Source: Candidatus Sericytochromatia bacterium
GTDB taxonomy: Bacteria; Cyanobacteriota; Sericytochromatia; S15B-MN24; JAQBPE01
Length of the DNA: 14,685 nt
Direction of reading: 5' to 3'
Assembly (NCBI GenBank): GCA_040400605.1
Contig: JBBAPZ010000011.1
Coordinates: 26,105 to 40,789 of the forward strand
The position numbers and the translations under genes are program-made. The first letter of the stretch is position 1. Each line of letters starts with the position of its first letter. The notes beneath the pieces are model-generated. The model saw only the letters and a program-made list of their open reading frames with translations. It did not search any database and was not told the origin of the DNA. Positions 1 through 14,631 of this stretch are shown piece by piece.

Positions 1-1050
1 GGCGGTACCATCGTCTCGCAGGGCGGTGGCAACCTGATTGGTGAGCTTGGCGGCATCTGGACGTTGGGGAGCGGTTCCGCCTTGGCGACAGCATCCGGCA
101 GCGCTCGGCGTCACCTGTTGCTGGATCAGGTCAGCGCGGATGGCAAAGTCACCGTTACTTACAACGAACGGACAGGGGTCATTGAACGGGTCCGCTCAGA
201 CTTAGGTGAGATGAAACTGATGTTTCCGGCGCCCGTGCCGGTCAACGGGTCCAATCTGACCAGAAGCATCCAAGGGGAGTGGGATCAGGTGGCAGAAGGA
301 ATCAAAGGCAATTTCAGGCTGGATTGGACCGGTGTGTGGAAGCCGCGTGCCGCCATTCGTCCCAAACCGGTGCCGAGCGTGACGCCGACTTGTTTGCCGG
401 TTGTCTCACCAACGCCCCAGCCGACCGTGGTACAACAAACGCCATTGCCTGCGCCTGTCGGGTCGCCCTTGCCGCAGATGGTGCTGTTTGATGGGGAATT
501 GCCTGAGACCACCGAGAAAGCCAGTTTGACGGCAAAGTTTGAGTGGCCGGGCGATCGCGCCATGACGTGGGGAGTCGTCATTGATACGCCCAAGGCATTC
601 AAGGATGGCAGCATCGAACCGAGTCGCGTGCAACTGGATTTGACGTTGGCGGATACGGAATTCGTGGGAGAAGTGACAGACGCTGATGGCGAGACGCGTG
701 CCAATGGACGCTTGACCATCAAAAACCAGGGTGGACGGGAACGGTATCGCTTCGATGTGGTGGCGCCTGATGAAGGCGAGGGTTCCTTGGTCATCTACAG
801 CTTGGATGAGCGCGATCAGGCCTTTTTCAAGGTGGAATTCAAATTGTTGCCACCCGCTACACCGTGTGGTCCAAGGAGTTTCACCGGAGCATTGTTCAAA
901 CCCGACAGCAAAGGCAAGCTGGTTCAGAAATTCGCGGATTGCTTGCCGGTTCCGGAAAATCCGAACCAGTTGCTGATTCGCTACACCAACGGTCAAACCC
1001 TCATTTGGGACTTTTTGACCGTTGCGGCCAGTCAAGAAAGGGTCAAGTGA
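1..1050 (+). CDS. 5'-truncated hypothetical, probably secreted/surface protein (Gly-rich segment, Pro/Thr-rich linker, beta-rich domains)
   Basis: Frame 1 is open from base 1 (GGTIVSQGGGNLIGELGGIWTL...) into ORF 64..1050, so the true start lies upstream of the window. Linker PKPVPSVTPTCLPVVSPTPQPT. The TGA stop overlaps the next start (GTGATG 1047-1052). Confidence 0.8.
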   Translation, partial: GGTIVSQGGGNLIGELGGIWTLGSGSALATASGSARRHLLLDQVSADGKVTVTYNERTGVIERVRSDLGEMKLMFPAPVPVNGSNLTRSIQGEWDQVAEGIKGNFRLDWTGVWKPRAAIRPKPVPSVTPTCLPVVSPTPQPTVVQQTPLPAPVGSPLPQMVLFDGELPETTEKASLTAKFEWPGDRAMTWGVVIDTPKAFKDGSIEPSRVQLDLTLADTEFVGEVTDADGETRANGRLTIKNQGGRERYRFDVVAPDEGEGSLVIYSLDERDQAFFKVEFKLLPPATPCGPRSFTGALFKPDSKGKLVQKFADCLPVPENPNQLLIRYTNGQTLIWDFLTVAASQERVK

Positions 1051-2366
1051 TGGTGGCAACACGAGGCACGCCGCTTCATACGCGCATTTTCATTGGCATG
1101 GCCCTTGGCATCGGCTTGGGACTTTTGGCGCGCACGCTGGCAGGTGCAGAGGCACCGTGGCTTCAAGCGCTCGTTCAACAAGTGGCCATTCCGATGGGGC
1201 AGATTTTTCTGCGTCTGGTGTTTATGGTGGTCATTCCGATGGTCATTGCGGCCTTGGCCCTTGGCGTTTGTGAAATTGGTGATGTTGGTAAAGTCGGGCG
1301 CATTGGGCTTAAAACACTGTTCATGACCTTGTTGTTTTCAGGCATCGCGGTTTTGGTGGGGGTCTTTGCCGTCAATGTGTTTCAACCGGGGGTTGGACTC
1401 AATGAGGTGGATCGGCAAGCCTTGATGGCAACGCTACAGACAAGCGATGCGCAAACACCCGTGGCACAGGCAGCCAAAGCCAAACCCGCCATGCAAAGCC
1501 TGGTTGAGCTGATTCCCAAAAACCCGATCGCCGACGCAGTCAACGCGTTTGAGGGAGGACTTCTGCCTCTGATGGTCTTTGCCTTGCTGCTGGGCGTCGC
1601 GCTCGCCGCTGTCGGCGACAATGCGGCCCGGCCGCTTAAGGATCTGCTTGAGTCGATCTATGCGGTAGCGCTCAAAATCATCGATTTTGCCATGCAACTC
1701 GCACCTTTCGGCGTGGCCGGCCTGATGTTCACGGTGGGTGCCACGCTTGGAGTCGGCGCACTCAAGATGCTCGCACAATATGCCCTGGTCGTGGTGGGAG
1801 CATTGGCGTTTCAGCAAATCGTGGTGTACGGATTGGGTATTCGCCTGCTCGCCCGTCGCAATCCCTGGCACTATTTCAAGGCGTTGCGGAGCGTCATGCT
1901 GACGGCCTTTGCAACCTCATCCAGTGCCGTAACCCTCCCCTCGGCCTTGACGGCCGCAACTGAGAATCTCAAGTTGCCCCGCAGTGTGAGCCATTTTGTT
2001 TTAACCGTCGGTGCCACCGCCAATCAAAACGGCACAGCCCTGTATGAAGGCATCACGGTGCTGTTTCTCGCCCAAATGTTCGGTATTGATTTAAGCATCA
2101 CCCAACAACTCACGGTCGTCCTGCTATCCATCGCGGCGGGAATCGGTACCGCCGGGGTGCCGGGCGGCAGCTTGCCCATGATCGTGATCGTACTGGGAAC
2201 GGTTGGTGTGCCCGGCGCTGCAGTCGGGATCATCATGGGGGTGGATCGCATCTTGGATATGTGCCGCACCGTACTCAACGTCACCGGCGATCTCACCATT
2301 GCAACCTGCGTGGCAGCCACCGAACCCCCGGAAATCAAGCCTGCACCAACCCAGGAAGTCGCTTAG
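1050..2366 (+). CDS. gltP: Dicarboxylate/amino acid:cation symporter (DAACS, GltP/GltT-like)
   Basis: Many TM helices; family motifs AFATSSSAVTLP, GATANQNGTALYE, IGTAGVPGG and GVDRILDMCRTVLNVTGD. Start placed at ATG 1050 (or GTG 1047) after GAAAGGG 1036-1042, not at 864. Confidence 0.92.
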   Translation: MVATRGTPLHTRIFIGMALGIGLGLLARTLAGAEAPWLQALVQQVAIPMGQIFLRLVFMVVIPMVIAALALGVCEIGDVGKVGRIGLKTLFMTLLFSGIAVLVGVFAVNVFQPGVGLNEVDRQALMATLQTSDAQTPVAQAAKAKPAMQSLVELIPKNPIADAVNAFEGGLLPLMVFALLLGVALAAVGDNAARPLKDLLESIYAVALKIIDFAMQLAPFGVAGLMFTVGATLGVGALKMLAQYALVVVGALAFQQIVVYGLGIRLLARRNPWHYFKALRSVMLTAFATSSSAVTLPSALTAATENLKLPRSVSHFVLTVGATANQNGTALYEGITVLFLAQMFGIDLSITQQLTVVLLSIAAGIGTAGVPGGSLPMIVIVLGTVGVPGAAVGIIMGVDRILDMCRTVLNVTGDLTIATCVAATEPPEIKPAPTQEVA

Positions 2367-2490
2367 CGAAAACGAATGGAACCGGGCGACACGCACCGTG
2401 CCTCAACGGCAAATATCACTGACCTGAGGCGAAATCGTGAGTGTTTTGACATGCATGTCGTACTCGCTGCACCACGCTTAGCGCGTGGAT

Positions 2491-2505
2491 TTAATTTTTT
2501 CTTAA
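2491..2505. promoter_or_regulatory. TTAA-N7-TTAA box in an AT-rich promoter region
   Basis: TTAAttttttcTTAA; the same geometry occurs at 9480-9494 and 14651-14665. Confidence 0.45.
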
Positions 2506-2652
2506 TATATTACGAATTGTAAACTTTTAAGCATTCATGCGGCTTGGCGAGTTTTGCGAACCCCCTTTTCAATTTTATTATGTTCTGTTTTAATCTAAAC
2601 ATAACATTTAGCTTGCAGAAGGGAATTGTACGTGGCCTTACCCTTTCAGTTG

Positions 2653-3588
2653 ATGAGCACCACTATGGATGAGCCGTTGGCGACTTTGGATGATGGGGAT
2701 CGCGAGGCGGCGTTACTCAGTGTGGAACGCGTTGCACGGCGTGAGATTCATAATGCGGCGACTATGCGCGGGACAGGTTGGTTGGGTGTTACGCGGGGTT
2801 GTCTGCGGGATGGTCAGGGTGCGATTCAGTCGTGGGAGGCAGCCTTAACGGCTTTGGGCGCGTTGATGGGCGGTGAGGCTGCGAGTGTTCGTGCTACGTT
2901 GGAGCAGTTATTCACGTGGCAGGCGGCAGAGGGTGCGTGGCCGACGCGGGTGTATCGTCGCTGGCGTTTGCGTGATGCCTGGGGCCGTTGTTTGGGTCGT
3001 GGTCGTGTCGATGGGGTGCTTGATGCGGCTCACTATGATGCTCAGGCGATCAAAAGTGCGTTGTTGTGGGTTTACGTTGCGGCGGAGTATGTCGCGGTGA
3101 CGGGTGAGCGTTCCGTGTTGGCGAATTGGTATGCGCCGTTATCGCGGGCGTTGGCGTGGGTGCAGCGGCAAGGGGTGGATGATTTGTTTACGGGTGCATT
3201 GTATTACCAGGCGTGCAAGGCGCTCGGCGAGATGGCGGTCATTTTGGGCGATGCGGTGGCTGGCGCCCGACACTGGGCCGAAGCGGTGATGATTCGCGAG
3301 CGTTTGGGTGACGCTTGTGAAGCGGGCAACAGTGACGAGGCCTGTCTGTGGGCGGTTACAACCGGTTTGGCGAGTCGCAAAACGGCGTCTGATTTGATGA
3401 ATCGCACCGGTGGTTGCCAGGCTTTGGTTGCGCTTGCGGCTGCTGTTTCGGGGGATGGTCAACGTGCTTGGGCCGCTTTGCGCGAAACCGCTGCCGAGGT
3501 GCGTGCGGCAGGCACCATCAAGCTGTCGGAAGCGGGGCTGTTTCTGCGGGCGTTGGCAGCCATCCGGGTGCTTCATCCGCATCCTTGA
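2653..3588 (+). CDS. Six-hairpin (alpha/alpha)6 glycosidase-like protein, shortened and possibly non-catalytic
   Basis: LLWVYVAAEYVAVTGERSVLANWYAPLSRALAW and ALYYQACKALGEMAVILGD resemble helices of amylo-alpha-1,6-glucosidase/GH78-type barrels. Start uncertain (TTG 2626, ATG 2653 or ATG 2665). Confidence 0.7.
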   Translation: MSTTMDEPLATLDDGDREAALLSVERVARREIHNAATMRGTGWLGVTRGCLRDGQGAIQSWEAALTALGALMGGEAASVRATLEQLFTWQAAEGAWPTRVYRRWRLRDAWGRCLGRGRVDGVLDAAHYDAQAIKSALLWVYVAAEYVAVTGERSVLANWYAPLSRALAWVQRQGVDDLFTGALYYQACKALGEMAVILGDAVAGARHWAEAVMIRERLGDACEAGNSDEACLWAVTTGLASRKTASDLMNRTGGCQALVALAAAVSGDGQRAWAALRETAAEVRAAGTIKLSEAGLFLRALAAIRVLHPHP

Positions 3589-3709
3589 GGGTGTCGCCGA
3601 ACAGAATCGGCAACGTTTCAAAAGCTGCCTCGCCACGTTCCTCTGCCGCGTTGGCACCGGCGGGCATCAGGAGGCATACGAGCAACAGGAAGCAGCGAAA
3701 CGCGTGCAT
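3518..3709 (-). CDS. Small (63 aa) putative secreted protein
   Basis: GAAAGGA lies 8 nt before ATG 3709. The N-terminus MHAFRCFLLLVCLLMPAGANA|AEE looks like a Sec signal peptide with an A-x-A site. Overlaps the convergent gene by 71 nt. Confidence 0.55.
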   Translation of the reverse strand: MHAFRCFLLLVCLLMPAGANAAEERGEAAFETLPILFGDTLKDADEAPGWLPTPAETAPLPTA

Positions 3710-3861
3710 GACGACCGTCCTTTCAGGTCTTGGGTGTGGGTTGGCGTGCCTGTTGCCAGTATGATGTCCGGCGTGGTCAAAAGCTGTGCGCGCGATCCCC
3801 AAACGGCTGGTAATCCGTCACCAACAGCCAATCAGTGTACGACGCCTCGCTGCGCGATACA

Positions 3862-3975
3862 GGAACGTGCTGATTGGTGATCAAATTCTGGCTGTTGGTG
3901 AATCACAACACGCAAGGGCCGGATGTTTTTGAGTTTGCTACACAATTTCTGAACAGCCGCCCAGGCGTCACTGTC
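3862..3975 (+). repeat. Dispersed intergenic repeat, copy A (reference)
   Basis: Aligns to 6372-6416 and 10253-10367, and in reverse to 7876-7999 and 4186-4212. Confidence 0.7.
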
Positions 3976-4185
3976 TAAATGCTGTCAATCAGGCATGAGC
4001 CTTGTTACTGACGGATGGTCGAACCACTGACCGAGCAGTTCTAATTGACAGGCCAAGCCTACTCAGAAAAATGTCACATCAATATTTCAAGCACTTTTCG
4101 ATTGCAGGCCGTGTCTACCAAGCGTCGTGCGAGCCACTTTCTGAAATGGGGTGTCTTTGCGCCCTGCCTGACGACATTCTTAGTT

Positions 4186-4212
4186 AAAAACACCCGGCCA
4201 TGTCGCGTGTTG
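4186..4212 (-). repeat. Dispersed intergenic repeat, inverted fragment G
   Basis: AAAAACAcCCGGCCatgtcGCGTGTTG versus the reverse complement of 3906-3930, AAAAACAtCCGGCCcttGCGTGTTG. Confidence 0.55.
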
Positions 4213-4232
4213 CACCAGCGCTTGCGCCGGTT

Positions 4233-6257
4233 TCAACCAAGGCGCGGGGGATGGGTTAACATTTGCGTCTGTGGCAAATGTTGATGGTAAAACTGCCGAA
4301 CCTGATTGAGCACGTGGGCGGTAACGGATTGGTCGCAAACAATCGGTTTGCCGTACCAGACATCAATTTGTCCGCCTTCGGCGCCCAGTAAAAAAGCGTC
4401 CGACAGCACGACGGGAATAACCTGTGACTTTTCGAAGGCCTGCATGATCCAAAGGATTCCCGCACGAAGCGGCGTGCCCTCAGCGAGGTAACTTGGGACA
4501 GTCACTTCCGGATAAAGTGCCAGGACCCGGTGTGAGCGTAAAGCGGCGATGGCATCTGCGATAATCACCCCGCGTTCTTTACCCGTGACGACAAAAGCCG
4601 ACGCGTGCGACAAACGGGAAATGAGTGGCCAGCGTTGAACCCGTTGCCCGACGACCATGGCAAGATTGCCATCCAGGACATTGAGCATCAAAAATGGGTC
4701 AAGTTCCGCGTGACGATGGCAAATCAGATACAAAATTGGAATGCCGGGCACCGGTTCAGGCGCGTTACACCGCCTGATGTTGATCCCGGCACGATGAAGC
4801 ACCGCACGAGCCAGATTGCGCGTCGCTCCCAATGGGTCAACCCCAGGCTCGCGGCCACAGCGCCACAAGGTGAGTAACCATTCGCTCCAAACACGGCTGT
4901 CACGCCACATAAATCGCAGCCAAAAACGCCAGCCAAGGCCCTGCCTGAGAGCCTGAGTGCGCCCGTGAGGGGTTCGAGCCAAGGTTTGTTTCAGTAACCA
5001 GGCAGCAGAAGTATGGTGCAGCCGCAGTGCGTTAAGCCCTTGGATAGCATCCGCTTTTTGAGCGGGTTTTGTCTCGCGTAAGGTAGACAAAAGCGAGCGG
5101 CACCAAAAAGCGGTCACCGCATAGTCATAGTTCCAGAAATAATACGCCAGCGCGTGTAGTGCCACTCCTTGCAGTTCGGTGTGTCCCTGCAGGCGGGCTA
5201 GCGCACGGGCCAGTTCCCCGTCAATTGCGGGTGGTGATGGGTCATCAGGTGGTTGCAGGGGTCCACCAACGCCGTGTTCTCCTTTTAGGACCCTGCGCCA
5301 AACAGGTTGGTACATGAACTGCCATAATGTGGTCACTTGCCAGCTTGTCGGCGCCACGTGATTCAAAATCGTTTGCAGGCGTTCAAGCCAAGCGTCAGGA
5401 TGCATCCCCGCGGGTGGCAAGTGAATGTGGACAGGCGCACGCCATACCCCTGGTGCGCCGTCTGGCCACCAAGGATCACCCAGCCACACATCACACGGAA
5501 TGGCTCCGGCCGCAAGTTGTTCGGATGTCAGTACGATCCGGTCTTCAATCGGCCAATCCGCGGGGTCAGGCTCATCATCAGGCAGACAAACGACCAGGCA
5601 GCGCAGGCGCCCGGGCATTCGCGCCCGCCAACGCGCCATGATCTCCGCTACCCGACGCTTCAAGGCATCGCACAAGTTGTACCAAGCGACACCGACCAGC
5701 AGACAACCCGTGGCATCCAGTGAGTCAGCCGCCAAATGTTCGGGATACACCTGGGCATTGAGTGCGATCACGTGATCGTGGTTCACGCCGAGCGCACGCA
5801 ACCAGCTCGTTTCCCCTTCATGACGCGTCACGATGATCACATTTTCAGCCAAGCGCTGAGAGAATCTAAACGCTGCCAGATGAACCAAATCCGGGCTCAC
5901 CCAACACAAATAGGGCTGCCGCAATCGCAACCCAGACAACAAGCGCCTCATTTGCTGCAACATCGTCGCTGAAAACACGATAATCGCGCCCAGTTCGTGT
6001 CGGGCGGCGGCATCAGGCAGCATCTTCAGCGCTTCAACATAACCCACGCGCAAAACATTTGCCTGCCCAGCCAACGACTGCTCAAGCGTGTGCATATGTT
6101 GCGCCATTTCTGGCGTACTCTCTTCGATGAACCAAACCAGCCGTTTGTTAGTCGGTGACAACATGCTCAACCAATCCATGCGCGACAAAAAAGACTCGCC
6201 ATGATCGCGCATGCCAGACAGACCTGCAACCCATTGGTTGCGAAGGGATGAACCCAA
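4233..6257 (-). CDS. Multidomain protein with C-terminal lysophospholipid (PlsC-like) acyltransferase domain and N-terminal degenerate glycosyltransferase-like region
   Basis: The C-terminus has ILYLICHRHAELDPF (motif I-like), VLALYPEVT (FPEGT-like), PLRAGI, VIPVVL and IDVWYGKPI in acyltransferase order. Start uncertain (TTG 6257 or ATG 6212). Confidence 0.75.
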   Translation of the reverse strand: MGSSLRNQWVAGLSGMRDHGESFLSRMDWLSMLSPTNKRLVWFIEESTPEMAQHMHTLEQSLAGQANVLRVGYVEALKMLPDAAARHELGAIIVFSATMLQQMRRLLSGLRLRQPYLCWVSPDLVHLAAFRFSQRLAENVIIVTRHEGETSWLRALGVNHDHVIALNAQVYPEHLAADSLDATGCLLVGVAWYNLCDALKRRVAEIMARWRARMPGRLRCLVVCLPDDEPDPADWPIEDRIVLTSEQLAAGAIPCDVWLGDPWWPDGAPGVWRAPVHIHLPPAGMHPDAWLERLQTILNHVAPTSWQVTTLWQFMYQPVWRRVLKGEHGVGGPLQPPDDPSPPAIDGELARALARLQGHTELQGVALHALAYYFWNYDYAVTAFWCRSLLSTLRETKPAQKADAIQGLNALRLHHTSAAWLLKQTLARTPHGRTQALRQGLGWRFWLRFMWRDSRVWSEWLLTLWRCGREPGVDPLGATRNLARAVLHRAGINIRRCNAPEPVPGIPILYLICHRHAELDPFLMLNVLDGNLAMVVGQRVQRWPLISRLSHASAFVVTGKERGVIIADAIAALRSHRVLALYPEVTVPSYLAEGTPLRAGILWIMQAFEKSQVIPVVLSDAFLLGAEGGQIDVWYGKPIVCDQSVTAHVLNQVRQFYHQHLPQTQMLTHPPRLG

Positions 6258-6371
6258 ACCACACTGTCTGGCTCACCATACGCTGCCAGACTCGCGTGTT
6301 GTCCGTTAAACGTTCATTGTCACAAACGGTCATCAGACAGAAGTGGCTTCGAATCTTTGCCGTGAGGAGTC

Positions 6372-6416
6372 TGAGTTCGCGACACAGGTTTTGAACAGAA
6401 GCCAGGGCGTCACGGT
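6372..6416 (+). repeat. Dispersed intergenic repeat, copy B
   Basis: 35/45 ungapped identity to 3930-3974; weaker similarity extends upstream to about 6328 (GGTCATCAGA). Confidence 0.7.
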
Positions 6417-6428
6417 ATGCCGGTTGGT

Positions 6429-6470
6429 TTGTCAGTTATCGCATCAGGCGCTATGATGGGCGCCTGATGC
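6429..6470 (+). promoter_or_regulatory. Sigma-70-type promoter with an overlapping 11-bp perfect inverted repeat
   Basis: TTGTCA (6429-6434), 17 nt, TATGAT (6452-6457). Arms GCATCAGGCGC 6441-6451 and GCGCCTGATGC 6460-6470. Confidence 0.65.
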
Positions 6471-7831
6471 ATTCACACCAGCGTTTCACCACCATCGCGT
6501 CAACGATCGTGCTTGCGGGTCTGTCGCCCGACGCGGGTCGAACCCAGCCGATGCAAGCAGAACCAACGACAACCCGAGTCTGGCAAGCTCGGGTGCTGCC
6601 TTTGCCCGGACGTTTGGATCAAAACTTGGTGTTCAACAGCAACAGTCCTGAAGAGGTGCTTAATTCCGGTATTTTGCTTTCAACCTTGCCGGGCGGCGGC
6701 CATGGGCTGGGTGTGGCATTCAATGGGCGCTTCAGCGTTTTTTCACATCATATCGCCAAAGACAACGCGCCGGGACAGCGACTTTTATACCTGGGATTGT
6801 TGGCGCACAACCCATCGGGTACCGATCTCCGCTTGAAGCGCTTAAGCGGTGGATCCTACTTGAGTCAACCCGATGCACTGTTTCGTTCGTTGCCTGCCGT
6901 GATGCCTGATGCGGACGGCGTGATTTTTGCGGGACCGGGCGATCGCACAACCACGGAATTGCTGCACGGGCGATCGCCCCTCGCCCCCACCACGTGGCAC
7001 CTTCCAGCCAAGCGCACCACGTTGCTCGACGCGTTTCCCATTCCCACCAGCGTCGCCATTTTGCCCCCCATCAACGGTCGCTCAACATTGATGCACATGC
7101 ACACCAACGGCCCCATCTACTTGTCCGAAGTGGCCTGCTTCGCGCAAAAGGATCCTCAAGGCGGTTGGCAAACCCCAACCCAAGCTGATTTTGAGCGGGT
7201 ACTCGCAAGCAGGACACTGGTTTTCCCGCGTGACGTGGCAGGTTCCGTCGTGCGGGCAGAGGGTCCGCAAGTGCCCAACTTTCGGTACGGGCGGGTTGCT
7301 GGTGTCAGTGTGGGCGATCGCTTCAGCGCGCAGCTCCCACTGCCCAAACCAAACGAAACCCTGGCGTTTCCAATCGCCTCGGTTGCACTCAACCGCTGGG
7401 GCACGGAGGCCATTCAAAGCGCGACTCTCAAAGCCCGTTATCCTGACACAGCCCATCAGGCCCACGGCAATTACGCCGTGCTGTACGACCTCACACTCCC
7501 CTTGGCCAACCCAAGCCAAAGAACCAACGACATTGTCTTTAGCCTCACCCATCCCCTACGCATGGAAGCATCACGTCGGGTGGTTTTTCAGTCGCCCCCT
7601 GCCCGAGCCACCACCTTTCGCGGCACGCTGAAGCTTGCGTGGGCACTGACAGGCGATCGCACCCACCAAACGTTTACACACATCGTGCTCCGCCAAGGCG
7701 AAAATCCCGGCCCATTCGCCACCCTCACACTTCCGCCCGGTGCACGTGGCATGGCACGACTCAGCCTCATCTACCCCCCCGACGCCACCCCGCCGCAACT
7801 CCTGCTAATAGACAATCAACCCAAACCATAA
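6467..7831 (+). CDS. DUF3370 family protein, probably exported
   Basis: Motifs PLPGRLD..VFNSNSPE..GILLST, F.GRF.VFSHH, SYLSQPDA.F, AGPGDR, YGRVAGV, AHGNYAV.YDL and LIYPPDATPPQLL match my recollection of cyanobacterial DUF3370. The N-terminus is weakly signal-like. Confidence 0.85.
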   Translation: MHSHQRFTTIASTIVLAGLSPDAGRTQPMQAEPTTTRVWQARVLPLPGRLDQNLVFNSNSPEEVLNSGILLSTLPGGGHGLGVAFNGRFSVFSHHIAKDNAPGQRLLYLGLLAHNPSGTDLRLKRLSGGSYLSQPDALFRSLPAVMPDADGVIFAGPGDRTTTELLHGRSPLAPTTWHLPAKRTTLLDAFPIPTSVAILPPINGRSTLMHMHTNGPIYLSEVACFAQKDPQGGWQTPTQADFERVLASRTLVFPRDVAGSVVRAEGPQVPNFRYGRVAGVSVGDRFSAQLPLPKPNETLAFPIASVALNRWGTEAIQSATLKARYPDTAHQAHGNYAVLYDLTLPLANPSQRTNDIVFSLTHPLRMEASRRVVFQSPPARATTFRGTLKLAWALTGDRTHQTFTHIVLRQGENPGPFATLTLPPGARGMARLSLIYPPDATPPQLLLIDNQPKP

Positions 7832-7875
7832 AACAGTCATCCAGCAAAACGAACAAATACGGCCAAAGCCATACT

Positions 7876-7999
7876 TGACGCCTTGTTTAGCACCTGCTTC
7901 AAAAAATACCAGTGCTGCAAACGCATTCCCGGCCTGAACCGGCATTGGTTGCGAACCGGGTCGGTACTTGTTGCCGGTCTCACATTGTTCAACAATCAG
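7876..7999 (-). repeat. Dispersed intergenic repeat, reverse-oriented copy F
   Basis: Colinear blocks match the reverse complement of copy A: TGACGCCT (7876-7883), GTGctGCAAACgCA (7912-7925, 11/14), CCGGCC (7929-7934), TTGtTCAaCAATCAG (7985-7999, 13/15). Confidence 0.6.
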
Positions 8000-8085
8000 G
8001 CAATTGAACAATTCCCACGATTGTCACAAGGCCGCTTGAACGCTCACTCTTGCCGAGCACGCGCGTAGGCTGTTTCAACTCTGCG

Positions 8086-8490
8086 TCATGACCAGGTCTC
8101 TTCCTCTACGAATAACCCGTGCGGATTGTGCCCATAATGATGGGTCCAGTCTTCCCCTTCTTCTGACAACACGCGACAGGGGGTGTTACGCATCAACCAG
8201 GTCACCCATGGTTCCATCTGCGTCAAAATTTCACGCGGCGCATCCTGATGAACCGTGATGCAATCCGGACTCAACGTCACAAAGCCTTGTGTGGCAAGCG
8301 AAATCGAGGACCGTTGGGTCAGTTGTGCCTCCAGATAGCGCGCCATTCCGGCGCTCGCAGCGATGACATAACTTAAGTCCGCTGAACGAGGCAAGCGAAA
8401 ACTGCCCGGCAGGCGCTGGAGTTCGGCTTGGATAGCCGATACATTAAAAGGTTTTCCTGCAGAAGGCAACAGATGATAATGAACCTGCAT
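8086..8490 (-). CDS. Hypothetical 134-aa protein, candidate immunity/partner protein
   Basis: ATG preceded by GGTGGGGT, 11 nt after the stop of the upstream gene; globular composition, no signal peptide. Confidence 0.75.
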   Translation of the reverse strand: MQVHYHLLPSAGKPFNVSAIQAELQRLPGSFRLPRSADLSYVIAASAGMARYLEAQLTQRSSISLATQGFVTLSPDCITVHQDAPREILTQMEPWVTWLMRNTPCRVLSEEGEDWTHHYGHNPHGLFVEEETWS

Positions 8491-8501
8491 ACCCCACCAT
8501 G

Positions 8502-9389
8502 CTAGGCAAAATTGATGTGGGTTCGCGAGGCGAGGTCATCCAGCCACTTTTTACCGGCTGGCGTCTCTGCCCCGAAGGGATTGGACGCATCCGCAGCCCA
8601 CTTCGGCAAGGGATTGCCGGAAGCATCCACCTTGAATGCTTCATTATTGAAGTTGTGTCCACTGGCCCCCGGCGGATACAAGACCGACACGCTCAGGTGC
8701 GGTTGTGGGCGGAAGCGGCTGGTCGGGTCGCCTTCGGGCTTGATCCGCACCATTCCGCCATCCGGGTGAATCCAGACTTCCATCGGCAACTCCTTGCCCG
8801 TGGTGGGATTCAGCACCGGTGCGCCCGTCTGCACATCCCGAATCACACTTTGTTCCAGTTGAAAGCCGCGACGTATCAAATCCTGCCGTACTTCAGCCAG
8901 TGGCTTGTTGATCAAGTTCAACGTCCGCACGGACCCACCCGTCGAACCCATTTTGTAGGACTGGATAGCCCCCGCGAGGCGCGGCGTTAAACTCGTGTTC
9001 CAGATCTTGGACGGATCCCGTTGCAATTGCTCGGCAAAGGTCAAAAAGCGCTCGCCAGCCTGCGCCGCAGAGACAGACGCCGGTGTGGCGAGCGGCCGCG
9101 CCAACCCAGACTGGCCCTGTTGGGTATACAAGGCGGCACGCTTGGGATCGTAAAGCGCCGCCAAGTTACCCGCCGAACCGGACGCAGGCTGTGGGACGGC
9201 AGGGGAGCCGGCAACCGCACGCCCAACAGGAGAACCACCCCCTGCACGTCGCTGCAATGTATCCTGCGCATAACCTCGCGGATTCGGACTGGCGGGATGA
9301 CGCTCTCGAGGCTTCTCACCAGCAACTGGCGCCGGAGATGAAGTCAAACTAGTCAGTTTGCCTAAGATTCCAAGACTCATCTGCGCCAC
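8502..9389 (-). CDS. Hypothetical protein with low-complexity N-terminus and toxin-like C-terminal domain
   Basis: TAAGGA lies upstream of GTG 9389 and ATG 9380. The N-terminal ~110 aa are A/P/S/G-rich. The C-terminal domain has WIHPDGGMVRIKPEGD..RPQPH..EAFKVD..G.PLPK..THINF. Confidence 0.8.
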   Translation of the reverse strand: MAQMSLGILGKLTSLTSSPAPVAGEKPRERHPASPNPRGYAQDTLQRRAGGGSPVGRAVAGSPAVPQPASGSAGNLAALYDPKRAALYTQQGQSGLARPLATPASVSAAQAGERFLTFAEQLQRDPSKIWNTSLTPRLAGAIQSYKMGSTGGSVRTLNLINKPLAEVRQDLIRRGFQLEQSVIRDVQTGAPVLNPTTGKELPMEVWIHPDGGMVRIKPEGDPTSRFRPQPHLSVSVLYPPGASGHNFNNEAFKVDASGNPLPKWAADASNPFGAETPAGKKWLDDLASRTHINFA

Positions 9390-9479
9390 AAGTCCTTATC
9401 CAAACACCTGATTGACGGGTAAACCAGCTTTTGATGTTATCCCGGGTACTGTGCAATACTTGCCTAAATGGGCTGTAAA

Positions 9480-9494
9480 TTAAATCAGTCTTAA
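9480..9494. promoter_or_regulatory. TTAA-N7-TTAA box upstream of the toxin-like gene
   Basis: TTAAatcagtcTTAA, about 90 nt upstream of the 9389 start. Confidence 0.4.
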
Positions 9495-9822
9495 TCTGAT
9501 GTCAGGCAGGCCGACTGAACGGATCGCGCCACTGAGAAACACGGATGTGATGGTTGTTTGAGTATCCTTCGCTTCCCAGCCGTAACGGGTTGTTTCGTGG
9601 CTTGCCGATCCCCCCGTTGACAGGATTATCACTTGATAACGAGGACATCGTGCCGTGAACTGTCATATGCCCGCTGGCATTTGCTGACCAATCTTGGCGT
9701 TCTGCCACGGTAAGACTGTCCAAGCAGTCATTTGTTTTCTTCGCTGAAAATAGCGAAAAGGCGTGCCATTCGGGGTAAAAATATCGTACACGACTCAGGT
9801 GTGGACAAGGGGAAGCTTAACT

Positions 9823-10200
9823 ATGGCATTGTGTCCGAGATGTCGCATTCCGCTGAAAAAACATACGATCACAACGGACGTTGAAAAATGGGAAGTGGAA
9901 GTCGATGCCTGTACGAACAGTTGCGGGGGAGTCTGGTTGCAAGACCACGACTTCAAGGCCGATGCGCGGGCCAATCTGTTGCTGGATTGCGAACTGTACG
10001 TAATCAATCGCGCAGTCAAGCGACTAAAACTGAGTAAACTCGATGAGACAGCCAAATGTCCCGACTGCAAAATACCGATGTATCGTTATGAATGGAATAA
10101 AACAGGGTTGGAGATTGACCAGTGCAAAAAGTGCAAAGGGCGCTGGTTTGACGCAGGTGAGATCCAGAACATCGCCGATGTCTTGCGCAGCAGTAGTTAA
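9823..10200 (+). CDS. Double zinc-ribbon (zf-TFIIB-like) protein
   Basis: Two repeats: CPRC...VDACTNSCGGVWL and CPDC...IDQCKKCKGRWFDAGE. AAGGGGAAG upstream of ATG 9823 favours this start over 9763. Confidence 0.88.
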   Translation: MALCPRCRIPLKKHTITTDVEKWEVEVDACTNSCGGVWLQDHDFKADARANLLLDCELYVINRAVKRLKLSKLDETAKCPDCKIPMYRYEWNKTGLEIDQCKKCKGRWFDAGEIQNIADVLRSSS

Positions 10201-10252
10201 CGGTTGTCAGATTATGGCGTCAATCTCTACATCTTCTGTCTAGCGCACTCTG

Positions 10253-10367
10253 GGAACGCGTTGTTTGGTGATCAAAAAGTGCTAGGTTGTTGAAAATCAG
10301 GACACGACTTCGAGATGTTTTGGCATTCGTTTCATATGATTCAAGCAGCAGCTGTTGCGTCACTGTC
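10253..10367 (+). repeat. Dispersed intergenic repeat, copy C
   Basis: 10253-10276 matches 3862-3885 at 21/24. GATGTTTT 10314-10321 and GCGTCACTGTC 10357-10367 match 3922-3929 and 3965-3975 at an almost constant offset (6391-6392). Confidence 0.75.
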
Positions 10368-10388
10368 GGAAATTTGATATTCCTCGCG

Positions 10389-11585
10389 TCAACTGCGCTT
10401 TCGCTGTCGTTTTTGCCGCAGGCGCTGTAACATTCGAGCAACCACCGCATTGCGCCGTGCCGCCAGGTTATAAATCAAATTTTCCAGTTTGGTGGCCAGG
10501 TTCGCGCTCCAACCAGACTGCTTGAGTATTTGATAAAAACGGGATGCAAAGAACCATCGCCAAGGCGCAGCCAACGCCGGTCGTTGTGGCACGGCTTGCC
10601 CCGCGAGACGCGCGCCCAAGGTTTGCCAGGCACCCTGCACCGATGCCGATAACCCCGCCTGCGGACCGATGATGCGGCGCACCTGACGCTGTGCCAGTTC
10701 ACCGCCTTGCTTGGCAATCGTCTCCAGCGTCTCACTGTGGTCTGCTGCCATTGACATCAACGAGAGACCTGCCCCCACCACTTGAACACTCACATTTACA
10801 GGTGGGGGCGTCAATGCGCCCAGGATCTCCGCGAGATTGCCGGTTAGCGCAGTCAGTGCGGTCAACCGCTCCTTGCCAGTTAAGGCGTGCCACTTTCTGA
10901 GTGTGTCAATGCGCGACATCGCTTCCTTTGTGGAGAGACTCAGGGCCAGAATCGGATTGAGATTGTCCACCAAAACCTTCTTGCCGATTTCAGAACCCAG
11001 CTTGACGGCGCCCTCACCACCCGGCACCATTTGATTGATGCTTTGGGTCAATTCAGCCAGACGCCCCTGAATCCGCTGATCACGCAAGCTGTTCAGCACC
11101 CGCTTCAAAACCGGATCATCCGATTCTGGAACCGTTTGAGGCGCTTTCTTGGCGGTTGCGCGCAAAGCCAGATGCTGCGCTTTCAACCCGTCGTTAATCT
11201 CGTTTGCTGACGCCTCAGGAGCAGGATTCGGCTCCGTATCTAGCCGTGGATCCGCATCCTTCGCACGCAAGGTTGGCGTACCCGCCGCAGCAACTGTATC
11301 CGCCGCGCACGACCGTTTTAATGCAAGCAACGCCTGGATGTCGTGTCGTCTCGCCAACACAGCCGCTGGCCACGTTCCGGTTTCGCAGTCAGGTTCTTCC
11401 GGGGACGGTTGGGACTCATGATCAGGAGGCGAAGGCGAAGCGGGCAGCTCAGCCCGCTTCATAAAGGCTTCCATAATGGTTGGTGCGATACCTTTCAAGT
11501 TGTCCGAAAGCTGATCAGCGCCCAAGGGATTATTCCCCCCGGGCGCTGATGACACTGCATCAACTTGGAAGCCTTTATCAGCCAA
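10389..11585 (-). CDS. Hypothetical 398-aa protein with disordered N-terminus, hydrophobic helical hairpin and basic C-terminus
   Basis: TTG start with GAGG 6 nt upstream, 16 nt after the yccA stop; long uninterrupted ORF. Confidence 0.75.
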   Translation of the reverse strand: MADKGFQVDAVSSAPGGNNPLGADQLSDNLKGIAPTIMEAFMKRAELPASPSPPDHESQPSPEEPDCETGTWPAAVLARRHDIQALLALKRSCAADTVAAAGTPTLRAKDADPRLDTEPNPAPEASANEINDGLKAQHLALRATAKKAPQTVPESDDPVLKRVLNSLRDQRIQGRLAELTQSINQMVPGGEGAVKLGSEIGKKVLVDNLNPILALSLSTKEAMSRIDTLRKWHALTGKERLTALTALTGNLAEILGALTPPPVNVSVQVVGAGLSLMSMAADHSETLETIAKQGGELAQRQVRRIIGPQAGLSASVQGAWQTLGARLAGQAVPQRPALAAPWRWFFASRFYQILKQSGWSANLATKLENLIYNLAARRNAVVARMLQRLRQKRQRKRS

Positions 11586-12433: not shown

Positions 12434-12763
12434 TAGCAACCTGTCCCACGCCGTAACCACCAGCAGGGAACCACCAATTTCACCGATCTGACGACAACCA
12501 CCAGGCCAAGACGTTAGAACCAAGACTGATTCCGGGTGATACTTGCGGTAGTGTACCAACGCGCACTCAACGAACAATCGGTCAATCTGATGGATGGCAC
12601 CAGCGGTCAAGTCCCTCTCCCCGAACACTAAGCAGTTTGACATGTGTTATGGTGGTACGTGATTTGTACAGCATCGTTTCAGGCGATCGTTCATCCTTGG
12701 CATGGCCTGCACCCTGCCAAGCGCCTGGAGTGAGCCTCTCATGAGCAGGACCGCGTAAAATCC

Positions 12764-13959: not shown

Positions 13960-14330
13960 TGGAACGGCTTTAACTCTTCCCAACCTACGCGCGGGCATTC
14001 AGTCACATGAGCAAACACCAAGATGACAAAGCCCCTTGATATCGGATCACATCTTTCACTCAACTGATCCCAGGCTTGCCGCGCCTCGCCCGGCACAGAT
14101 CGGACGCTACATCGCGCCTTGATTGCAAGCTGCCGGTGGGCACTAACCGAACGGATACTGGTCAGTTTGCGGCGCAAAATCCTGGAAACCAAGTTATCGC
14201 CTTATCTCTTGAAAGTATCTGTTCCAAAAAACGTTCTAAACCAGGTTACAAACAAGGTACCCTGAAACAGGATTCCAAGGGTTGTTTCAGGCACTTTCTG
14301 ACTTGATGAAGTGGCGAACAGGCAATGAAC

Positions 14331-14355: not shown

Positions 14356-14631
14356 CGAACATTTTCAGGGAACCATTGTTTGTGCTCACTGTTTGATTCT
14401 TAACAAAAGCGAATAACACCAAGCGTCACACATAATATTTCAACGGAAATCAGCGCTGATTTGATGCAAAAAAGATGGATTGTGAACGACGGGTTGCGCT
14501 CGTTGCACCATGCTTGTAAGTGAATAGAAGCAAGCGGTACGAACGCTGCTTCCACAATAAACTGCACACCAATCATGCGGTGTTTGGGTTTTTCAGTCCA
14601 CGGATGATGCTCGCTGCTTCATTCTTGGGCA

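Follow-up and report, generated by a model that had tools for sequence, protein, structure and literature searches.

What is the diverged repeat that recurs between the genes of a 14,685-nt stretch of the genome of Candidatus Sericytochromatia bacterium, and how did it come to be scattered there? The stretch (hereafter the window) comprises positions 26,105 to 40,789 of contig JBBAPZ010000011.1 in assembly GCA_040400605.1. In an initial annotation made from the letters of this DNA, copies in both orientations were noted and three explanations were offered: an old transposon-derived element, a multicopy structured RNA, and a site for a chromosome-organising protein. The repeat, here designated Fam1, proves to be a genuine family, with some 230 decayed copies that carry no genes and are scattered among the genes of this bacterium. 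It is most likely a now-inactive element similar to the miniature transposable elements with inverted repeats (MITEs); its non-coding 119-bp copies were inserted at RYB^VRY without target duplication and would have been moved by a putative bluntly joining transposase.

The genome searched amounts to 3.71 Mb in 174 contigs and is 94.6% complete. Across it, an iterated profile hidden Markov model (HMM) of the Fam1 core finds 242 matches at E<=1e-3, against 0 in a reversed-genome decoy, which bears out the expectation of many copies genome-wide. Once overlaps are merged, these matches form 232 loci: 176 have the full length, 24 retain the left part only, 28 the right part only, and 4 an internal part. 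Only 8 of the loci overlap called open reading frames (ORFs), and 7 of those ORFs are marginal calls. Copy A of the window, used as the sole nhmmer query, returns 109 genomic matches at E<=1e-3, and plain blastn with the same copy recovers dozens of copies; it was thus an overstatement that the copies are too diverged for default repeat finders. Nor was it confirmed that the repeat fills most long intergenic regions, as Fam1 is present in 186 of the 1311 gaps of at least 150 bp. The window looks saturated because four separate families (Fam1, F2, F3, and F4) share its gaps.

Both the ends and the inverted repeats of the unit could be defined. The unit of ~119 bp has ATACAG...CTGTAT termini lying within ~30-bp imperfect inverted repeats, in which 20 of 29 consensus positions, from the outer A through position 32, are Watson-Crick paired. 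Both junctions are preserved in 156 copies, and the cores of 132 of these measure 114-117 bp. Conservation is 0.6-0.9 within the unit, rising over a few bases at each end from ~0.3 outside, and it is again ~0.3 beyond three flanking target positions per side. Identity of the 156 copies to the consensus averages 74% (range 57-90%), while pairwise identity among 169 full copies has a median of 61% and reaches 93% in the closest pair. Linked columns (best p 3e-9 of 6328 pairs) indicate subfamilies or several source copies. Fam1 copies are nested in copies of F2, F4, F7, and Fam1 itself, which creates paralogous empty sites and is evidence of past mobility. The first of the three explanations, that of an old MITE-like element, is supported by the well-defined ends and inverted repeats, by the constant length, by the nesting of copies, and by a decay that looks neutral. 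The definition of a MITE given by Delihas includes target duplication (PMC3184786). Fam1 is short, non-coding, uniform, bounded by inverted repeats, and formerly mobile; it behaves as a MITE but lacks target duplication.

The flanks of Fam1 are biased at three positions per side (RYB before the unit, VRY after it) and are random beyond. The dinucleotide at the centre of the site varies (GA 31, TA 24, TC 17, GC 16, GG 16, and TG 14 of 156). By itself, the flank consensus leaves three readings open: the element could be CAG...CTG with TA duplicated, ACAG...CTGT with AT duplicated, or a unit inserted with no duplication. Flank identity for 1-10-bp duplications, under four end definitions in the 156 copies, is not above that of shuffled pairs (highest z 2.0); in the 53 best copies, one of 40 such tests gives z 3.4. 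An AT duplication would make the octamer HIP1 (GCGATCGC) the target of Fam1. The flank consensus and the 1554 HIP1 sites of the genome had pointed to this candidate, and it was ruled out by the independence of left and right flanks and by the nested joins described below.

Nested repeats can serve as empty sites where no close relative is sequenced. Two tests of such sites took in 159 copies, consisting of the 156 Fam1 copies and 3 of the 7 copies of F8, a smaller family with the same termini. In the first test, each flank was placed separately on host-family profiles. Among 13 two-flank placements, offset 0 was obtained in 5 (both flanks >12 bits) and offsets +2 and +4 in none, compared with 0.225 at offset 0 and 7.7 placements in total per shuffle. 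In the second test, seven alternative joins were scored, and the blunt join was best in all 10 junction-spanning matches (>=25 bits), exceeding the TA-duplication join by 5.6-11.6 bits in the 9 cases with both scored. Copy A illustrates this: within its F4 host, the blunt join scores 34.5 bits, the AT duplication 25.6, and the TA duplication 22.9. When copy A is excised, its flanks align to F4 gap-free over 170 columns and the score rises from 74.5 to 90.2 bits. At nested sites, insertion of Fam1 at RYB^VRY has neither added nor removed any host base.

Several points weigh against blunt insertion by a lost transposase. In the first test, 8 of the 13 placements fall at other offsets, one of them (offset -12) with both flanks >12 bits. 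In the second, 3 of the 10 cases are weak and 7 clear, copy A being among the clear ones; two of the weak cases adjoin same-family fragments and are possibly local duplications, and the third is a 77-bp copy. The F8 copies covered were three of the seven. The empty sites seen are paralogous, in host repeats 20-30% diverged, and no orthologous ones were seen. The gene calls come from a simple purpose-made caller. Lastly, an autonomous partner was found neither in the assembly nor at 124 transposase loci from other genomes, which leaves the enzyme and its chemistry to be deduced; repeats often go unassembled.

The procedure itself was checked with positive controls. The flank-identity test finds 9-11-bp duplications in F2, F3, and F7 and a weak signal in F4. 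For a cyanobacterial IS630 element with TA/CAG ends (the slash marks the element boundary), the empty site in congeners retains TA, with 6 of 19 flank loci in register. Thus, the approach detects duplications where they are present, and Fam1 is distinct from IS630 although their terminal letters are alike. It is those letters that suggest an ordinary MITE of the IS630/Tc1-mariner type, comparable to RUP, ERIC, or Correia, which duplicated TA and whose flanks have since eroded. Cyanobacterial IS630 elements and their MITEs end TA/CAG and TA/TAG, very like ATACAG, and the size and inverted-repeat length of Fam1 resemble the 24-bp ends of ISY100 (PMC2170065). In addition, T^A is the second commonest Fam1 centre (24 of 156), and several host consensus sites are T^A. 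However, CAG...CTG with a TA duplication implies four more bases at the empty site, and a join of this kind was outscored in each of the 9 cases for which it had a score. The other arrangement, TACAG...CTGTA between two TAs, needs an outer T and an outer A, which occur together in only 7 of the 53 best copies; the outer T/A share shows no age trend (no rise with identity), while adjacent positions are ~77% conserved. The DDE_3 domain was also not found in this genome. A TA-duplicating IS630-type origin is therefore largely refuted and must be considered unlikely.

Absence of a duplication is also the expected outcome of two other routes, a single-strand HUH transposase (IS200/IS605, IS91, or RAYT) and a recombinase acting on a circle junction, and the ends of Fam1, when joined, make a perfect 12-bp palindrome. 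The target of HUH elements is one-sided and their ends are hairpins; for a recombinase, the target must contain a shared core. The Fam1 target is two-sided and symmetric and its ends are inverted repeats, which fits a dimeric enzyme, and its variable centre would not offer a recombinase the common core that it needs. Such chemistry is accordingly a quite improbable source of Fam1.

Under the favoured account of a bluntly joining transposase, a dimeric cut-and-paste enzyme of the DDE type would have acted in trans and bound both inverted ends of Fam1; its gene would have been part of a full-length element that has since been lost or is missing from the assembly. The attack of this enzyme on the two strands of the target would have fallen at one and the same base step, and no duplication would have resulted. 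A symmetric target preference, together with ends that are inverted copies of each other, fits a dimeric enzyme. Several source copies would have spread long ago and decayed neutrally since, the survivors persisting mainly between convergent genes, where no promoter is broken. Activity would have ceased long ago, with a later wave represented by F8. This family has 7 younger copies of ~112 bp (C32:2382-2493 and six other loci) with the ATACAG...CTGTAT termini of Fam1 and a different interior, and in one case an F8 copy is bluntly nested in a Fam1 copy. The shared termini and junction suggest that blunt chemistry was probably used at least twice. F8 is the best bait for the transposase.

The search for that enzyme covered this genome and others. 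The DDE_3, DDE_Tnp_4, and ISAZ013 domains were not found in this genome, where other transposase families, Y1 among them, and recombinases were not searched; the ISAZ013 control matched nowhere in that search, and the family matched 17 of 131 genomes in another. Four DDE_Tnp_1 matches in this genome are of the IS4, ISH3, IS1634, and IS5 types. The ends of 3 of these 4 elements were compared and differ from those of Fam1, and the sole IS5-like contig is among the other-ended ones. No long ATACAG...CTGTAT pair and no contig-end match in the assembly is element-like. The 124 loci from other genomes, the best-scoring of each search for IS630, ISL2, ISAzo13, and DDE_Tnp_1, include no ATACAG-ended element, and Fam1 end models have no real match in cyanobacterial IS630 loci. 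ISfinder lists a few small insertion sequence groups without a direct repeat, which could include the partner. As a separate observation, several contig ends (C4, C19, C23, C28, C34, and C127; C9, C10, C21, and C31) share breaks at a few young repeats, none of which has Fam1 ends; mobile elements or rRNA operons that collapsed in the assembly probably account for these repeats.

A scan for Fam1 in relatives and beyond yielded no copies outside this species. Copy A with its flanks has 0 matches in 30 relatives, and the Fam1 end patterns have 0 and 0 matches in all species genomes of GTDB. A length pattern applied to 46 genomes of the class and 201 photosynthetic genomes gave only scattered matches and IS630-type MITEs, while the end pattern gave 4 single matches with no partner arm in 400 genomes of the phylum. 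Matches to the Fam1 pattern in plasmids are chance matches only, and those in viral contigs (0 and 18) include none with a matching element. Metagenomes contain 5 Fam1 loci, each 99.6-100% identical to this genome.

Fam1 is enriched between convergent genes, where it occupies 65 of 229 gaps compared with 121 of 1082 other gaps (odds ratio 3.1, p 5e-10), and its orientation is unbiased relative to both neighbouring genes (45:56) and GC skew (83:93). Enrichment of this kind combined with random orientation fits insertions that survived where they were least harmful. The same location, with 85 of the 232 copies between convergent gene ends, could alternatively point to copies retained for a function as a structured RNA, a terminator, an mRNA-stability element, or a chromosome-organising protein site, and a long hairpin (-37.5 kcal/mol) can be formed by the consensus. 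Against an RNA role, Rfam gives 0 matches at E<=1, the consensus-paired end columns hold 84 compensatory changes compared with 95.2 expected by chance, and there is no strand bias. As for a protein site, the unit shows almost even conservation from end to end (0.77 / 0.72 / 0.76), and Fam1 copies and other repeats interrupt each other. Promoter-like (3 vs 3.0) and terminator-like (8 vs 9.1) sites between 3600 and 10500 of the window are at shuffle levels, and Fam1 is absent from every other genome searched. Retention for function is thus very improbable as the origin of Fam1, and neither the RNA nor the protein-site explanation of the initial annotation is upheld.

Within the window, six members had been proposed (Table 1), of which copy A, copy C, and the right half of copy B stand, and the remaining three are borderline at best. 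Whole-profile scores of 126.9 bits for A, 58.1 for C, and 34.9 for B lie far above those of 400 family-free intergenic 160-mers (mean -22, maximum -4.5 bits). The matching blocks reported between copies were reproduced, with 21/24 (88%) for 3862-3885 against 10253-10276 and 35/45 (78%) for 3930-3974 against 6372-6416. The left half of copy B is lost or unrecognisable, none of the left-end blocks tested being significant. Copy F is missed by the profile HMM and scores -4.4 bits (z 3.0), a value that none of 400 intergenic controls and 2 of 400 reversed ones attain; 0 of its 5 blocks is individually significant (p 0.06-0.33), and it overlaps a weak match to F4 at 7945-8021 (E 0.009 in the window). 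As whole elements, the 4186 piece (z 0.1) and the 9680 piece (z 1.2) do not stand up, and one block in each (p 0.002 and p 0.003) stands out among 20 tests on regions chosen post hoc in the initial annotation, so that both may be 30-bp Fam1 remnants. As for the gap types assigned to the copies, copy A had been placed between tandem genes; by the present gene calls its neighbours are convergent, unless a small uncalled ORF at 3518-3802 (minus), which overlaps the end of the 2626-3588 gene, is real. The second half of this ORF resembles a signal peptide protein.

Table 1. Fam1 copies, candidate remnants, and members of other repeat families in the window
Feature	Position	Strand	Description
Copy A	3857..3976	+	Full-length Fam1 within an older F4 copy; core HMM E 1.1e-29; 83% identity to consensus
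F4 host of copy A	3836..4125	+	~175 bp; split into 3836-3856 and 3977-4125
Copy C	10248..10368 (approx.)	+	Full-length, more decayed, left terminus eroded; core HMM E 1.9e-13
Copy B	6366..6418	+	Right half up to right terminus; HMM positions 71-122, E 7e-08
Copy F	7871..8003	-	Doubtful member; perhaps a heavily decayed copy or a patchwork of remnants
9680 piece	9679..9708	-	Possible 30-bp left-end remnant, borderline; directly adjoins F4 copy 9536-9675 (minus)
4186 piece	4183..4211	-	Possible 29-bp internal remnant, borderline
F2	12467-12598
F3	2368-2480, 14407-14515, 14516-14626
F4	3836-4125, 9536-9675, 14150-14323

The F2, F3, and F4 copies in the window gaps are unrelated to Fam1. They belong to a set of at least nine further small repeat families in this genome (F2 with 121 loci, F3 91, F4 135, F5 17, F6 8, F7 20, F8 7, F10 8, and F11 14). 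Together with Fam1, these families span 77 kb of the 656 kb of non-coding DNA and are nested in one another. Unlike Fam1, F2 and F3 have 9-10-bp duplications and avoid convergent gaps. In tandem gaps they are aligned with the neighbouring genes (47:14 for F2 and 39:9 for F3), and this orientation, combined with the avoidance of convergent gaps, suggests promoter-directed insertion.

The host is probably a non-photosynthetic, Sericytochromatia-type member of the Cyanobacteriota, since its DUF3370 look-alikes are mostly cyanobacterial, no photosynthetic reaction-centre domain was found in this genome, its class comprises 47 genomes, and HIP1 is very abundant. HIP1 is the commonest 8-mer of the genome, its copies amounting to 8.1 times the Markov expectation. 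Examples in the window lie near 553, 6939, 6970, and 7313. Among genomes of the class, HIP1 copies number 261-4131 in family f1, 1433-2885 in f3, 0-6 in f7, and 68-221 in f6, and the octamer is abundant across the order of the host; in this comparison the reversed-pattern control contains CTAG, so that ratios are likely overstated. HIP1 has been reported absent from Gloeobacterales in a source that makes no mention of Sericytochromatia-type lineages (PMC13756078), and no literature on HIP1 in Sericytochromatia or Melainabacteria was found. Its abundance in the host lineage may bear on the time of HIP1 origin. Five long ORFs in the window have no Pfam match at E<=0.001 (4233-6257 on the minus strand, 2626-3588, 8502-9389, 10389-11585, and 1-1050). 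The 674-aa product of one of these five ends in a stretch that may be an acyltransferase, to judge from a motif resemblance.

As a genomic parasite, Fam1 is ordinary, and its missing target duplication is the point of interest: this fossil repeat is mostly unremarkable, with a single unusual trait that is well supported. MITE finders rely on duplications (PMC10969869), and families like Fam1 are therefore likely under-counted. No bacterial inverted-repeat MITE without a duplication was found in the literature, as far as open papers cover it. If the proposed chemistry is true, a bacterial DDE enzyme that inserts without target duplication would be mechanistically odd, such behaviour having until now been proposed for Spy of animals, and a bluntly joining bacterial transposase would be a possible tool for clean insertion. 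Without the enzyme, blunt insertion by a bacterial DDE transposase stays a lead.

Among known systems, RUP (107 bp), ERIC (~127 bp), Correia, and Nezha resemble Fam1 in size, in their terminal inverted repeats and non-coding nature, in numbering hundreds of intergenic copies with the potential for a long hairpin, and in a burst followed by dormancy (PMC3184786, PMC10969869). These elements are defined by flanking target duplications (PMC3184786, PMC10969869), whereas Fam1 has none; the likeness noted here is one of form. A different kind of likeness is seen with SDR5, a cyanobacterial repeat of 21 nt, and HIP1-associated repeats (PMC13756078), as the genome is rich in HIP1 and Fam1 junctions are often GCGAT or ATCGC. 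However, HIP1 is not the target of Fam1: GCG^CGC flanks occur in 4 of 156 copies (~3 expected from marginal counts), and AT is not at the empty sites.

IS630/ISY100 elements and the TACAG-ended MITEs of cyanobacteria resemble Fam1 in terminal letters, with TACAG...CTGTA near-identical, and in length (107-128 bp for the MITEs), and the first five end letters of Fam1 are those of cyanobacterial IS630 ends. Such MITEs were observed in photosynthetic cyanobacteria (G073, loci L150-L179; G517, G087, G063, and G069) at 107-128 bp with TACAGC...GCTGTA ends matching IS630, G073 having 40 matches. ISY100 duplicates TA in vitro (PMC2170065). In addition, the base outside TACAG varies in the cyanobacterial MITEs (A 19, T 8, and C 1 of 28), whereas in Fam1 it belongs to the inserted unit. 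At the ISL2-type loci of bacteria that were examined, the ends are TAGAC or TAGGG and never ATACAG. According to Kojima, elements of the PHIS group, bacterial ISL2 and IS5 among them, duplicate nothing or 1-4 bp (PMC10045372), so that a duplication-free bacterial element has a precedent in principle.

A parallel in proposed mechanism is Spy, an invertebrate element of the PHIS group for which non-staggered joining by a DDE transposase has been proposed by Han et al. (PMC4122938). Like Fam1, Spy has inverted repeats and enters the centre of a symmetric 6-bp site with neither duplication nor deletion (PMC4122938). It differs in being eukaryotic, with an AAA^TTT target and known transposases (PMC4122938), whereas Fam1 is bacterial, with an RYB^VRY target and an enzyme deduced from its traces. 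Tentatively, and with somewhat less than even confidence, Fam1 could be regarded as the fossil record of an undescribed bacterial blunt-inserting transposase with RYB^VRY specificity, a prokaryotic counterpart of Spy and possibly an offshoot of IS630 in which the cut moved outward and the old A-TA target now lies in the element end.

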